Shown here: positions 6,988 to 33,092 of the stretch, in pieces | How the letters are laid out: the number at the start of each line of letters is the position of its first letter | How positions within the stretch are numbered: position 1 is the stretch's first letter | Assembly: GCA_001004105.1 (NCBI GenBank) | Contig: LCQK01000001.1 | Coordinates: 102,928 to 166,927, forward strand | Length of the DNA: 64,000 bases | Direction: 5' to 3' | Source of the DNA: Candidatus Jorgensenbacteria bacterium GW2011_GWB1_50_10 | GTDB lineage: Bacteria > Patescibacteriota > Minisyncoccia > UBA6257 > GWB1-50-10 | Translations under genes and position numbers: made by a program | Notes under the pieces: model-generated | What the model saw: only the letters and a program-made list of their open reading frames with translations | Told to the model about the DNA's origin: nothing | The model's database searches: none

Positions 6988-7785
6988 CTATGTCTTTGCG
7001 ATAACAAAGCCGATAATCTTTTTCGCGCCGGCGTTTTTTAGAACGAGCACCGCTTCTTTCATTGTCGCACCCGAAGTAAAAACGTCGTCAACGAGAATGA
7101 CGTTTTGGCCGACAATTGCTTCAGGACGCTTCAGTGAAAACGCGCCGCTGACGTTTTCTTGTCTTTTCTCGTGGTCTTTCATTTTCGTCTGCGATTTGGT
7201 GTTTTTAGTGCGCACGAGATTGTTGGTTTCGATTCCAATTTTACGAGGTTCAACCTCCTCGCGAATTGACGTCAATATTTGGGAGGTTGAACCTCGGGGA
7301 GGTCGGACTTCCAAACATTGACGTAACACCTCCGCAACAAGATACGCCTGGTTGAAACCGCGCTCCCGCTCTTTTTGCGGATGAAGAGGCAGAGGCACAA
7401 CTGCAAAATTTCTAATTTCTAATTTCGAATTTCTAATTACTTTTTCCAGGTACTTATTGATAATTTCTCCGAGCGGTTCAAGAACGGTTTTGGCCCGGTT
7501 GTATTTCAAGGCGTGGATCAGTTCTCTTACCACCCTGTCTTGATAAGAAGCGGCGGCGGCGAGGACGAATTTCACTCGCGGATGGCAGAGATTTTGGTTC
7601 TTAGGCAGGCTGTCTCGGGCAGGCAGGCGCCGGTTGCATTCCGGGCAAAAAAAGGAGTTGTTGATTTCGATTCGGGCGGCGCATTCATCGCAGAGCGCTT
7701 TTTCTCCCCGCCGGAGGCAATTCACGCAAATCGGCGGGAAAATAACGTCAAGAAACAAATTCCATATTTTTTGAAGCGTCTCCAT
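6988..7785 (-). CDS. comF: ComF-family competence protein (double zinc ribbon + phosphoribosyltransferase domain)
   Basis: CVNCLRRGEKALCDEC...CPECNRR zinc ribbons; C-terminal PRTase motif NVILVDDVFTSGAT; carries a ~60 aa internal insertion encoded by palindromic DNA. Confidence 0.8.
   Translation of the reverse strand: METLQKIWNLFLDVIFPPICVNCLRRGEKALCDECAARIEINNSFFCPECNRRLPARDSLPKNQNLCHPRVKFVLAAAASYQDRVVRELIHALKYNRAKTVLEPLGEIINKYLEKVIRNSKLEIRNFAVVPLPLHPQKERERGFNQAYLVAEVLRQCLEVRPPRGSTSQILTSIREEVEPRKIGIETNNLVRTKNTKSQTKMKDHEKRQENVSGAFSLKRPEAIVGQNVILVDDVFTSGATMKEAVLVLKNAGAKKIIGFVIAKT
7245..7312. repeat. palindromic mini-element (paired GGAGGTT(C)GAACCTCC hairpins) inside the comF CDS
   Basis: GAGGTTCAACCTCC 7245-7258 and GGAGGTTGAACCTC 7283-7296 plus a partial third arm; same family as 18755-18805 in ligA. 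Confidence 0.6.
7408..7435. repeat. heptanucleotide tandem repeat (TTTCTAA)x4 within comF
   Basis: tttctaa tttctaa tttcgaa tttctaa seen directly; encodes ...KLEIRNSKLEIRNF... Confidence 0.6.
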
Positions 7786-14826: not shown

Positions 14827-15264
14827 ATGAACAAGGGGTTTACGCTGATTGAGATGCTAGTCGTAGTAGCAATTATCGGGTTGCTTTCTTCAACCATTCT
14901 CGTTGGATTGGGGAATGCCCGGAGTAAGGCCCGCGACGCGCGCCGGATTGCGGATTTGCGCCAGATTCAGACCGGCTTGGAAAATTATTATGTGGAAAAC
15001 AACCAATCGTATCCCCAAACGCTTTACACTTCGGTTCCCGGCCTGCCGCACGACCCCCAGGGAGGCGAGTATGGCTACGTCCGGCCCGGAAGCCAAGCCT
15101 ACATTTTGGGTGCCTGTCTTGAGAATGACCGAACAGGCGACATCCAAACGTTTCCCGGGAGTTACGACGTAAGTCCTGTTGGTTCGAATAAAGTGCCGCC
15201 GCCTTCCTGCACCTGTGATGACGTGAGCGCCTACTGCGTCGCCGTGGGCTTGGGCGGCCGCTAA
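14827..15264 (+). CDS. type IV pilin (second copy)
   Basis: MNKG|FTLIEMLVVVAIIGLL prepilin signature; C-terminal Cys pair. Confidence 0.8.
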   Translation: MNKGFTLIEMLVVVAIIGLLSSTILVGLGNARSKARDARRIADLRQIQTGLENYYVENNQSYPQTLYTSVPGLPHDPQGGEYGYVRPGSQAYILGACLENDRTGDIQTFPGSYDVSPVGSNKVPPPSCTCDDVSAYCVAVGLGGR

Positions 15265-15265
15265 A

Positions 15266-16165
15266 ATGGAAGCGCTTTATTACCCGATACTTTTTTTATT
15301 CGGGCTTGCCGTCGGCAGTTTTTTGAACGTTTTGATTTTAAGATATGCTCCGGAGAGGAGCGTATTCAGTTTGGAGAATTTGCGCGGTCGCTCGCATTGT
15401 CCGCACTGCGGCAAAACTCTTCAGTGGTTTGAGCTTGTGCCGTTTCTCTCGTACATCGCACAGGGCGGCCGCTGCCGTTCCTGCGGCAAGAAATTAACCG
15501 TTCAGTACCCGCTTGTTGAATTCTTGTCGGGAGCGATTTTTGTCGCTCTGCCGCTTTATTTTTCCAAATTTTACGGTTTCATCGGTCTTTTCCCGGAGGG
15601 CTCTGGATTCCGCTCCTACTACGCCTATCTTATCGTCTGGGTTTTGATTCTGCTCACCTGGGCTTTGATAAGCGTAATTGACATGCGCCATTATCTGATT
15701 CCCAACGAACTGAACGTTCTTCTTGCGGCACTGGGGGTCATTTTGGTTGCCGTAAAGAGCCTGCCTTCGGTTTGGCTCCTGCCTTTCCATAGTTCATTTT
15801 TAAGGCATTACCTTTTGATTTTTTCGCCGATGCAGAACATTTGGATAAATCATCTTTTAGGTGCCCTAGCCGGTCTTTTATTTTTCGGACTTTTAATTGC
15901 AATTTCCCGAGGCCGGGCGATGGGGATGGGAGACGTGAAACTCGCCGCCGCCGCCGGTCTTATTTTGAGCTGGCCGGACATGGCTCTTGCCATGATTATC
16001 GCTTTCATCTTGGGAGGCGTCTGGGGAGCATTCTTGCTTTTGACCAAAAAGAAAACCCTCCGCGACAAATTGCCTTTCGCGCCGATTATGATTTTGGGAA
16101 TGGTTCTTACCGTCTTCTTCGGATATCAGATCGTAAGCGGCTATTTCGGACTTTTTAATATCTGA
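15266..16165 (+). CDS. pilD: prepilin peptidase PilD (A24 family)
   Basis: CPHCGKTL...CRSCGKKL zinc motif; polytopic membrane protein with the catalytic MGMGDVKLAAAAGLIL segment. Confidence 0.8.
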   Translation: MEALYYPILFLFGLAVGSFLNVLILRYAPERSVFSLENLRGRSHCPHCGKTLQWFELVPFLSYIAQGGRCRSCGKKLTVQYPLVEFLSGAIFVALPLYFSKFYGFIGLFPEGSGFRSYYAYLIVWVLILLTWALISVIDMRHYLIPNELNVLLAALGVILVAVKSLPSVWLLPFHSSFLRHYLLIFSPMQNIWINHLLGALAGLLFFGLLIAISRGRAMGMGDVKLAAAAGLILSWPDMALAMIIAFILGGVWGAFLLLTKKKTLRDKLPFAPIMILGMVLTVFFGYQIVSGYFGLFNI

Positions 16166-17262: not shown

Positions 17263-17870
17263 ACAAAAATTCAAAATTCAAAATTCCTGCCTGCCGGCAG
17301 GCACGGCAAAATTCAAAATTTAGGAAAGGTTTTACCCTCGTTGAGCTTATTGTCGCGATGTCGGTTTTTATCATCGCGATTACCATCGCCGTGGGCGCTT
17401 TTGTCCAGGCGCTCCGCACCCAGCGGATTGTGAATCACATGCTCTCCGTAAATTCCAACGCCAGTTTGGCGATTGAGCAGGTAGCGCGGGAGGTCAGGAC
17501 GGGTTATAACTTTGATTTGAATAACGTGCCTCAAGGCAACTGCATCGGGGGGCAGGAAGAAGAACTTGAATTCACTAATTCTCGTGCCAACAGTGTTTTT
17601 TATCGGGAGGAATCGGACGCTATTACCCGAATGGAGTGCGTGGGGAGTGATTGCTCGGGCAAAACTTTCCAGCCGCTTACAGCCTCAAACATCAAAGTGG
17701 ACCGGCTCTGTTTCACGAACACCGGCAGTTTGGTGAACGGCAAGGATCCCTGGCGGATAACGTTTTTTATGACGCTTGGTTCCTCCGACCCAAAACTCTC
17801 AGGTGAGGTTTTGAACTTTCAAACAACGGTCGCGGCAAGAATTTTGCCCCAAGAATTACCCGAAGAATGA
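17253..17870 (+). CDS. minor pilin (PilW-like) with a long repeat-encoded leader
   Basis: RKG|FTLVELIVAMSVFII prepilin motif; 26 aa leader encoded by (AAAATTC)n repeats and a palindrome. Confidence 0.65.
   Translation: MAMNKNSKFKIPACRQARQNSKFRKGFTLVELIVAMSVFIIAITIAVGAFVQALRTQRIVNHMLSVNSNASLAIEQVAREVRTGYNFDLNNVPQGNCIGGQEEELEFTNSRANSVFYREESDAITRMECVGSDCSGKTFQPLTASNIKVDRLCFTNTGSLVNGKDPWRITFFMTLGSSDPKLSGEVLNFQTTVAARILPQELPEE
17266..17320. repeat. (AAAATTC)x3, palindrome TGCCTGCCGGCAGGCA, then (AAAATTC)x2 at the 5' end of a pilin gene
   Basis: seen directly; heptamers 17266-17286, palindrome 17288-17303. Confidence 0.7.
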
Positions 17871-18265
17871 TTCAAAATTCAAAATTCAAAATTAAAAATT
17901 CGCAGAGAGGTCAAGTGATGATTTTAAGCGTGATGATGCTGGGCGGCATCATGCTCTCGGGCGCCGCGATTGCCGGTCTTCTCATGCTTTACCAGATTAA
18001 GTCGGCAAATGACGCGGTGAATTCCGCGAAAGCCATTTTTGCGGCCGATGCCGGCTTAGAAAGCGTGACTTGGTGCATTCTTAAAGGTGCCGGCACAAGC
18101 GCTTGCGTTGATGGCATAGTCCCAATTGTCTTTGATGATTCAACTGTCTCGATAAACGCAAAAAGTCAGACCGTCGGTAGCGAAATAATAATCACTTCCC
18201 GGGGTTACGGCGCCTCCGGCAAGGCGGTAAGAATCTTGGAAACGATTTTTGAAACCGGACCTTAA
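17867..18265 (+). CDS. minor pilin-like protein (PilX-like)
   Basis: N-terminal hydrophobic segment VMILSVMMLGGIMLSGAAIAGLLML; no Glu at +5; the true start could be Met 17918. Confidence 0.5.
   Translation: MIQNSKFKIKNSQRGQVMILSVMMLGGIMLSGAAIAGLLMLYQIKSANDAVNSAKAIFAADAGLESVTWCILKGAGTSACVDGIVPIVFDDSTVSINAKSQTVGSEIIITSRGYGASGKAVRILETIFETGP
17871..17905. repeat. heptanucleotide tandem repeat (TTCAAAA)x3 plus degenerate units at the start of the PilX-like gene
   Basis: ttcaaaa ttcaaaa ttcaaaa ttaaaaa ttcgcag directly after ATG 17867. Confidence 0.7.
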
Positions 18266-20323
<2,058 letters not shown>

Positions 20324-32693: not shown

Positions 32694-33013
32694 TGATAAG
32701 CTTTGAAGATTTCAAAAAATTGGATTTACGGGTGGCGAAAATCGTCGCCGCGGAAAGGGTGGAGGCGACGGACAAGCTTCTGAAGCTTCACCTTGATATT
32801 GGCGGTGAGGAGCGGCAAATTATCTCTGGTATTGCCGAGGAATATTCTCCCGAAGGACTAATCGGCCGGGAAATCGTGATTATCGCCAATCTCGAACCGC
32901 GGAACTTCAAGGGAATTGAAAGCCAGGGGATGCTTCTTGCCGCCGAGTCGGATGGCGTGATATCGCTTTTGAAGCTGGATGAGGAAGTCCCGCCCGGCAG
33001 CCCGGTTCACTAA
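32690..33013 (+). CDS. tRNA-binding protein (CsaA/Trbp111/EMAP-like domain)
   Basis: [22 protein letters not shown] resembles the MetRS C-terminal tRNA-binding domain. Confidence 0.7.
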
Positions 33014-33092
33014 AATTTCTCTGGAAAATTTCTCTGGTTTTGTTGTGTCTTCAAAATCCGTCCATATGGACGGATTTTGAAGACGTTTTGTT

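Follow-up and report, generated by a model that had tools for sequence, protein, structure and literature searches.

An in-frame palindromic insertion in comF, probably a copy of a repeat family dispersed among Patescibacteria

The comF gene considered here lies on a stretch of 64,000 nt from Candidatus Jorgensenbacteria bacterium GW2011_GWB1_50_10 (contig LCQK01000001.1, positions 102,928 to 166,927; hereafter, the window), and its coding sequence contains a composite palindromic element that is also found in ligA, the gene for the NAD-dependent DNA ligase, in the same window. The comF feature is probably a resident copy of a dispersed, non-autonomous family of palindromic repeats of Patescibacteria (the Candidate Phyla Radiation, CPR), resembling repetitive extragenic palindromes (REPs) and the Rickettsia palindromic elements (RPE). 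An original prediction, made from the letters of the DNA, had described a selfish mini-element inserted in frame into comF; that the element is selfish is something that we infer. The exact ComF and LigA proteins are named in databases as Candidatus Jorgensenbacteria GW2011_GWA1_48_13 (CPR/Parcubacteria). The bacterium is a tiny inhabitant of groundwater, present in the Rifle aquifer time series. The features of comF, in window coordinates, are as follows:

6988-7785, minus strand: comF (ComFC-like) host gene, an open reading frame (ORF) of 265 aa
aa 11-57 of ComF: DZR_2, double zinc ribbon (Pfam)
aa 206-261 of ComF: Pribosyltran (Pfam)
about 7232-7326: composite palindromic element of three units, encoding approximately aa 154-185, LRQCLEVRPPRGSTSQILTSIREEVEPRKIGI (from repeats, profile, folding and AlphaFold)
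7244-7258: core of arm 1, CGAGGTTCAACCTCC, read on the mRNA as EEVEPR
7259-7281: spacer of 23 nt, with a palindrome of its own, ATTGACGTCAAT, at 7265-7276
7282-7296: core of arm 2, GGAGGTTGAACCTCG, read on the mRNA as RGSTS
7298-7324: third, degenerate unit, with core GGAGGTCGGACTTCC at 7298-7312 plus flank CAAACATTGACGT, read as LRQCLEVRP

The paired sequences on which the prediction was based are present (GAGGTTCAACCTCC at 7245-7258 and GGAGGTTGAACCTC at 7282-7295) and they do constitute a repeat, but they had been taken for two separate hairpins, and folding revealed them to be the two arms of one long 15-bp hairpin. The full arms (7244-7258 and 7282-7296) form a 15-nt inverted repeat, 100% complementary, with 23 nt between them, and the predicted fold of a 103-nt stretch, which combines the 15-bp stem with a second small helix, reached -21.7 kcal/mol as DNA and -41.4 kcal/mol as RNA (z = -4.4 and -4.8, respectively). 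Likewise, the extent initially assigned (7245-7312) covered the third core, but the element is larger and comprises three units; the flank of the third one pairs with the spacer, and its variant core is the same that forms the hairpin in one ComF ortholog (P0126). The 13-mer GAGGTTSAACCTC, allowing at most one mismatch, was found four times in the window versus 0.06 expected from shuffles, and the 15-mer GGAGGTYSRACCTCC, allowing at most two, five times versus 0.4 expected. All these matches fall in comF or ligA, to which the five units belong; the 64 kb contain no other copy. A search of the window against Rfam 15 at the gathering threshold returned six tRNAs only, and no match at the comF site. 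Since five independent assemblies have exactly the same comF sequence and a sixth departs from it at one position only, the element is not an assembly artefact.

The AlphaFold2 model of ComF (mean predicted local distance difference test score, pLDDT, of 81) depicts aa 160-184 as coil, with pLDDT values below 50 for aa 161-180, and the element-encoded stretch is predicted to be a disordered loop. The earlier idea of an extra low-complexity loop was thus supported, but not its location between the zinc ribbon and the phosphoribosyltransferase (PRT) domain: the modelled loop lies between the helix at 146-159 and the strand at 190-192, within the PRT-like fold. Sequence and profile searches of the PDB with ComF produced generic PRT matches only and no ComF structure. 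On sequence evidence, the comF segment is an insertion and not an ancestral sequence. The alignment with orthologs that had been suggested as a check exposes it clearly: GFNQ and DDxxTSG are separated by 90 aa in the window, whereas the 77 other orthologs have 63-75 aa there (65-67 aa in the case of 59), and comF carries approximately 24 codons more than the family norm. Moreover, the segment is absent from the four closest ComF relatives (P0122, P0123, P0125 and P0127) in a tree built without the loop. Element-free orthologs sharing the peptide, which had been named as the finding that would overturn the prediction, did not appear; the orthologs with parts of the segment (P0124, P0126, P0128, P0145, P0150 and P0160) all have a hairpin there, with core-like arms in five and a shorter GGAAGT/ACTTCC stem in P0160. 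A metagenome scan with the ComF alignment recovered only distant orthologs (at most 48% identity), which gave the canonical spacing and in none of which was the core element found.

The second host gene in the window is described by two features:

18269-20323, plus strand: ligA (NAD-dependent DNA ligase)
18744-18816: ligA doublet, with cores GGAGGTTCGACCTCC at 18755-18769 and GGAGGTCGAACCTCC at 18791-18805

That ligA harbors the same element, as originally proposed, was corroborated by the string GAGGTTCRACCTCCCAAAWATTGA, which the copies in comF (minus strand) and ligA (plus strand) have in common. The folding of the ligA copy gave z values of -6.2 (DNA) and -7.2 (RNA). The LigA loop between IPLxL and LVVRGEVF is hypervariable in 119 CPR LigA homologs, and GGSTSQ...GGRTSQ occurs in none of them. 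At the element site, LigA orthologs with 82% and 80% identity have 13 fewer codons, and the window LigA is 20 residues longer there than the solved adenylation domain of Bacillus LigA (PDB 1B04), so the notion of an in-frame insertion holds for both host genes. Because it is without counterpart in other LigA homologs, the ligA copy looks like a de novo insertion.

The evidence for a dispersed family came from a scan of one genome per species, covering 185,579 species (GTDB), with the exact pattern GGTTCRACCTCC-N15-45-GGAGGTYGAA. This yielded 53 loci, 41 of them fully palindromic doublets; about a dozen further matches, in unrelated phyla, were present on one strand only, and their number is close to the order estimated by hand for chance. 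The 41 doublets belong to Liptonbacteria, Saccharibacteria, Wolfe-, Jorgensen-, Nealson-, Kaiser- and Tagabacteria, other Patescibacteria and one Omnitrophota chromosome, with a few from metagenome-assembled genomes (MAGs) deposited only as 'bacterium'. One Liptonbacteria MAG contains at least 10 near-identical copies, and the Omnitrophota chromosome (CP070780.1) has four doublet loci (L011, L042, L047 and L056) with adjacent arms. That the same core is found in a phylum outside the CPR points to horizontal transfer or to a common recognition factor. In Omnitrophota, the variant GAGGTTCGACCTCC-GGA-GGAGGTCGAACCTC is also iterated in tandem inside the GltD-like, LpxK, RecG and HisF genes, and the tandem copies encode repeated RGSTSGGGRTS peptides.

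The consensus of the unit is AATaTttGGAGGTTCAACCTCCnaaaAtt, with conservation ending about 9 nt beyond the core, and its anatomy can be written as AATATT-nn-GGAGGTTCRACCTCC-nn-AAWATT; the core reads like a Shine-Dalgarno-like GGAGGT followed by its complement. Most units are found in inverted pairs, or doublets, with the two arms joined in a 15-bp stem. The central base of the arms is complementary in 40 of the 41 doublets (28 A/T, 12 G/C and one mismatch), indicating that the doublet behaves as one unit, and both types of center are present within one genome. The spacers, in turn, are genome-specific, being GGGAACCGAAGAATGAATATT in Liptonbacteria, TCCGCC-AGC[T/C]-GGCGGA at three loci (L018, L058 and L062) and AATATTA-CGT-TAATATT at most others, which is the pattern that amplification within a genome would produce. 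An nhmmer profile constructed exclusively with units from other genomes detected the two cores of ligA (E 1e-8 and 3e-8) and, in comF, the segments 7237-7261 (E 7e-4), 7274-7295 (E 1.5e-4) and 7296-7322 (E 0.17), with no further match in the window. A search of viral contigs for the paired core pattern gave two irrelevant matches only, one of them a coding tandem repeat of a giant virus. Literature searches for the core sequence, for CPR palindromic elements and for RPE together with Patescibacteria retrieved no description, and we found none of this repeat family in the searchable literature.

Classification of the copies as coding or non-coding, which had been recommended as a second check, placed 17 of the 41 doublets (approximately 40%) inside long ORFs and the rest in intergenic DNA. 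Fifteen of these 17 hosts have a Pfam match and two do not. Those identified through Pfam include a GltD-like oxidoreductase, a Wzy_C protein, two PMT glycosyltransferases, PolX, the CCA-adding enzyme, LeuRS (two loci), Val/IleRS (two loci), LpxK, RecG, HisF, LepA and an NTP-transferase; a single unit was found within GatB. Depending on the frame, the DNA of the element is read as RGSTS/GGSTS, EV(R/Q)PP/EVEP or RF(D/N)L/RSNL. Since one DNA is read in three frames, the peptide is a by-product, and a functional peptide motif was ruled out on the same grounds. Compared with solved structures, HisF has 15 extra residues and LepA has 8. The 15-nt core equals five codons, and it is stop-free in all six frames in the G/C variant and in five of six in the A/T variant, in which the stop arises as GGT TGA ACC, a frame that the copies inside ORFs avoid. 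Being stop-free in most frames, copies of frame-keeping length survive inside genes, where they occupy variable loops and are read in the frame dictated by the host. The other doublets lie in short spacers between different co-directional genes (for instance, holB/frr, pheS/pheT, leuS/ligD-PE and prfB/ABC) or form arrays after a tRNA gene. A split-gene or intron-like nature of the intergenic copies was ruled out, as the flanking ORFs are different genes and none of the copies splits a gene. Two resemblances of GGTTCRACC were also discarded: that to the tRNA T-arm, because the loop is too short, and that to integron attC sites, because any GTTSAAC palindrome fits the attC core trivially.

A syntenic relative (contig Ga0137716_10000589, with 80% amino-acid identity in LigA and 78% nucleotide identity in ligA) made it possible to observe the turnover of the element. 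The relative has no element in ligA or comF, and it bears a doublet of the same subfamily, AATATTAAGGAGGTTCGACCTCCCGAACATTGATGGTAATTTCAGGAGGTCGGACCTCCAAAAATTCC, in the spacer between the pilin-like and prepilin peptidase genes (L063:6305-6385), at a junction that is empty in the window, so that the two collinear genomes display three presence/absence differences. The empty site and the comF tract discussed below are:

15260-15270 (about 15264): empty site, where the pilin-like and prepilin peptidase genes of the window abut at TAAAATGG
7177-7371, minus strand: recombinant tract of comF, aa 139-203, containing the element

The history of the comF copy appears to be different from that of ligA. 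Among the orthologs, P0124 (59% identical) has arms and flanks nearly as in the window and a different spacer. When the informative sites at which the window agrees with the loop-less P0123 were counted against those at which it agrees with P0124, the ratio (P0123 to P0124) was 104:32 in the 5' part of comF, 11:39 in the tract containing the element (Fisher, 3e-11) and 28:19 in the 3' part. Identity to P0124 at third codon positions is 0.75-0.8 beside the element, versus about 0.3-0.6 (mostly 0.3-0.5) across most of the remaining comF. By these site patterns, the window comF is a recombination mosaic around the element, and in the simplest reading, the element-bearing tract of approximately 200 nt appears to have been acquired by homologous recombination from another lineage, and not by fresh transposition.

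These observations can be integrated in a mechanism in which new copies would arise by insertion of a hairpin, at the DNA level, into AT-rich sites, through a putative enzyme or factor acting in trans and possibly recognizing the hairpin, while existing copies would also spread between alleles by homologous recombination; the encoded peptide would have no function of its own. Several facts weigh against this explanation. No recognizable transposase or mobilizing gene was found in the ORFs beside the Liptonbacteria arrays or between spaced cores, the search being confined to these places. In addition, the copy number is modest, with two loci only in the 64-kb window, and the single filled/empty pair has a junction (an AT or AAAAT repeat plus 16 extra nt) that is ambiguous as a target-site duplication. 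The arms of the ComF orthologs vary in sequence yet stay complementary, which may mean selection for structure: those of P0145 are GGAGGCTCAACTTCC-TAA-GGAGGTTGAGCCTCC, those of P0150 are GAAGGCCGACTTC-CTAAA-GAAGTCGACCTTC, and P0126 has the variant GGAAGTCCGA. The comF genes of P0139 and P0160 have unrelated palindromes at the element site. Lastly, the proposal offers no explanation for the conservation of the 15-nt core across phyla.

A different explanation would be a nucleic-acid signal beneficial to the host and maintained by selection, such as an element for mRNA stability, processing or pausing, or a protein binding site, and not a selfish sequence. We regard this as unlikely. In its favor, in the six loop-bearing orthologs for which the DNA was fetched, a strong hairpin (-25 to -67 kcal/mol, compared with -5.8 for the loop-less P0123) is found at one position of comF, with different arms; the nearly invariable complementarity of the doublets and the constancy of the core (GGAGGT/ACCTCC) among phyla point in the same direction. 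However, the genes that house copies are unrelated and read them in different frames, other copies form intergenic arrays or follow tRNA genes, their presence is patchy even in the closest relatives, the arms hold one sequence across the family instead of covarying freely, and the site matches no Rfam family.

It is similarly doubtful that GGAGGTTCRACCTCC represents the signal of a transposase-free mode of spread, common to the ultra-small Patescibacteria and Omnitrophota. According to this proposal, tracts would move by transformation and recombination, would occasionally seed new sites and would be read by a conserved host factor, the candidates being the uptake/recombination machinery or the anti-Shine-Dalgarno end of the 16S rRNA. 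If true, it would constitute a new class of mobile DNA tied to a DNA-scavenging lifestyle.

That the core acts as a DNA uptake or recombination signal, spread by biased uptake and homologous recombination in naturally competent CPR bacteria without any transposition, is quite improbable. The mosaic structure of comF around the element, the type IV pilus/competence cluster located beside comF in the window, and the conservation of the core across lineages all fit with this notion, as do the many hosts devoted to genome maintenance (ligA, recG and polX, with one copy adjoining holB and ligD-PE), given that a bias towards genome-maintenance genes has been reported for the DNA uptake sequence (DUS) of Neisseria. 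Nevertheless, the density is far too low (five units at two loci in 64 kb, with no scattered singletons), the copies are insertions of 40-95 nt and not motifs produced by point mutation, and the ligA copy, lacking a counterpart in the 119 homologs, needed a de novo insertion.

Less credible still is that the palindrome originated where it stands, from an ancestral loop that underwent local inverted duplication or hairpin-templated (quasi-palindrome) mutation, its likeness to ligA being coincidental. The EVEP encoded by one arm is reminiscent of the EVEPP, EVDLP and EVGLP of orthologs, and unrelated palindromes exist in the same permissive loops of P0139, P0160 and a LigA homolog (P0117). Yet over 40 loci, distributed over more than 20 genomes, have the core with its AAWATT flanks, an independent profile matches both loci of the window, and the EVEP segments of the orthologs are themselves arms of the same hairpin family; the genome scan and the profile matches largely refute such an origin. 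Finally, an ancestral functional ComF peptide or an assembly artefact has almost nothing left in its favor, for although the reading frame is uninterrupted and some orthologs have parts of the peptide, the segment is missing from most orthologs, is predicted to be disordered and corresponds to different peptides in other hosts, and the agreement of the assemblies disposes of the artefact.

The interest of the preferred explanation, a mobile palindromic family resident in comF and ligA, stems from the nature of its hosts. CPR genomes are small (approximately 1 Mb) and streamlined, and are considered to have little mobile DNA. The presence of the family in many CPR classes, and in frame within essential genes, shows that such genomes are still being colonized, with DNA ligase, aminoacyl-tRNA synthetases, LepA, RecG, PolX and ComF among the products affected, in parallel with Rickettsia, another reduced and host-dependent lineage. 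The family accounts for part of the peculiar low-complexity loops seen in proteins of the CPR, which calls for caution before interpreting these loops as functional motifs. On the practical side, its copies could be used as presence/absence markers for strain tracking, and the core provides a concrete sequence with which to seek, in those Saccharibacteria that can be cultivated, a mobilizing activity or a biased uptake. The mosaic tract of comF, for its part, is direct evidence of homologous recombination between diverged CPR lineages.

Other palindromes were observed in the loops of related proteins. The ComF gene of P0139 (L151:501-1412) has a palindrome of 130 nt, that of P0160 (L150:501-1391) a perfect one of 24 nt, GGTACTACACGATCGTGTAGTACC, and the LigA loop of P0117 (L152:201-2366) a hairpin with a 13-bp stem, CTCGGGAACTAAA...TTTAGTCCCTGAG; several hairpin families seem to collect in the protein loops of CPR bacteria. 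A motif related to the TCCGCC-type spacer mentioned above, TCCGCCAGAAGCGGATCCACCTTAGGCGGA (peptide SARSGSTLGG), lies in the heptamer-repeat loop of the comF gene of the syntenic relative (L065:10001-10756), and the SAGGG- and GGSASGG-type loops of other ComF and LigA homologs may represent a similar palindromic motif.

The window contains additional repeats. Heptanucleotides of one type are repeated in tandem inside comF (AATTTCT, 4.6 copies, at 7407-7438) and at the 5' ends of two pilin-like genes (AAAATTC, three copies, at 17266-17286, and ATTCAAA, 4.6 copies, at 17870-17901), encoding NSKFKI-type peptides in the latter; in many other genomes of the CPR, the same peptide motif (xNSKFQIP, RNLKFEIP and RNSKLEIRN) fills the variable loops of both LigA and ComF. 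As a 7-nt unit is not a multiple of three, the gain or loss of a copy would alter the reading frame, and these repeats may be contingency loci of the slipped-strand type in genes for competence and pili. The heptamer repeat at 17266-17286, at the N-terminus of a pilin-like gene, is immediately followed by a GC-rich palindrome, CCTGCCTGCCGGCAGGCACGG (17288-17308); the encoded ACRQARQ lies upstream of the prepilin motif KGFTLVELI. Elsewhere, a short spacer between genes contains a perfect palindrome of 38 nt, GTCTTCAAAATCCGTCCAT/ATGGACGGATTTTGAAGAC (33047-33084), which adjoins a 13-nt direct repeat, AAAATTTCTCTGG, present twice at 33012-33037; the palindrome could be an operator or a recombination site.

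With regard to known systems, the likening to RPE in the original prediction has proved apt, the family being dispersed, located both inside and outside coding sequences, translated in different frames and variably present between syntenic genomes. RPE, reportedly described by Ogata et al. (2000/2002), are likewise short palindromes that form stable hairpins, and their genome too is reduced and host-dependent; they occur within genes as well as between them, are inserted in frame, are tolerated by housekeeping proteins in their loops, are absent from orthologs and have no known transposase. In contrast, the hosts here are Patescibacteria and Omnitrophota, so that the family is an analogue of RPE, likened by description, and not a member; its units, with a core of 15 nt and doublets of some 70 nt, are far shorter than RPE-1, and there is direct evidence here of spread by allelic recombination. 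Two of these elements, RPE-4 and RPE-6, were discussed by Di Nocera et al. (2013, PMC3733652).

The comparison with REPs is equally instructive. The same authors reported that intragenic REPs form head-to-head dimers that encode 20-30 aa and are found in DNA ligase, repair and tRNA synthetase genes, and distinguished GTAG- and CGTC-tagged REPs, with no dedicated transposase for the CGTC class (PMC3733652). The host genes of the family belong to the same categories as those of the intragenic REPs. As in REPs and in REPINs, the latter said to be the work of Bertels and Rainey, hairpin units occur as inverted head-to-head dimers (with an imperfect palindromic unit of 20-40 nt), there are genome-specific subfamilies, and copies are found just after stop codons in short spacers, sometimes as arrays. 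They differ in that some 40% of the doublets of the family (17/41) are intragenic, versus a small minority for REPs, and the family is not predominantly extragenic; its stem is longer, its loop has 3 nt and its terminal tetranucleotide is inconsistent. GACGTC is found at the center of the comF spacer of the window and CGTC in three other loci (L014, L028 and L034), and many spacers have ACGT, GCGT or neither. No candidate for a REP-associated tyrosine transposase (RAYT) gene was found among the unannotated ORFs listed beside the Liptonbacteria arrays, to which this search was confined.

Miniature inverted-repeat transposable elements (MITEs), such as the Correia elements of Neisseria, are also non-autonomous, carry inverted repeats and are present or absent between relatives. 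The elements described here are much smaller and tolerated inside ORFs, the junction of their one filled/empty pair is ambiguous as a target-site duplication, and no parent insertion sequence (IS) was seen between spaced cores. Finally, the DNA uptake sequences of Neisseria (DUS) and Pasteurellaceae (uptake signal sequence, USS) have in common with the family a short conserved motif, often in inverted pairs, placed in permissive positions of genes and in genome-maintenance genes, and a spread linked to recombination; in contrast to uptake sequences, which are scattered single motifs at about one per kb, the units of the family have a density at least 10-fold lower, are clustered, and constitute insertions of tens of nucleotides.

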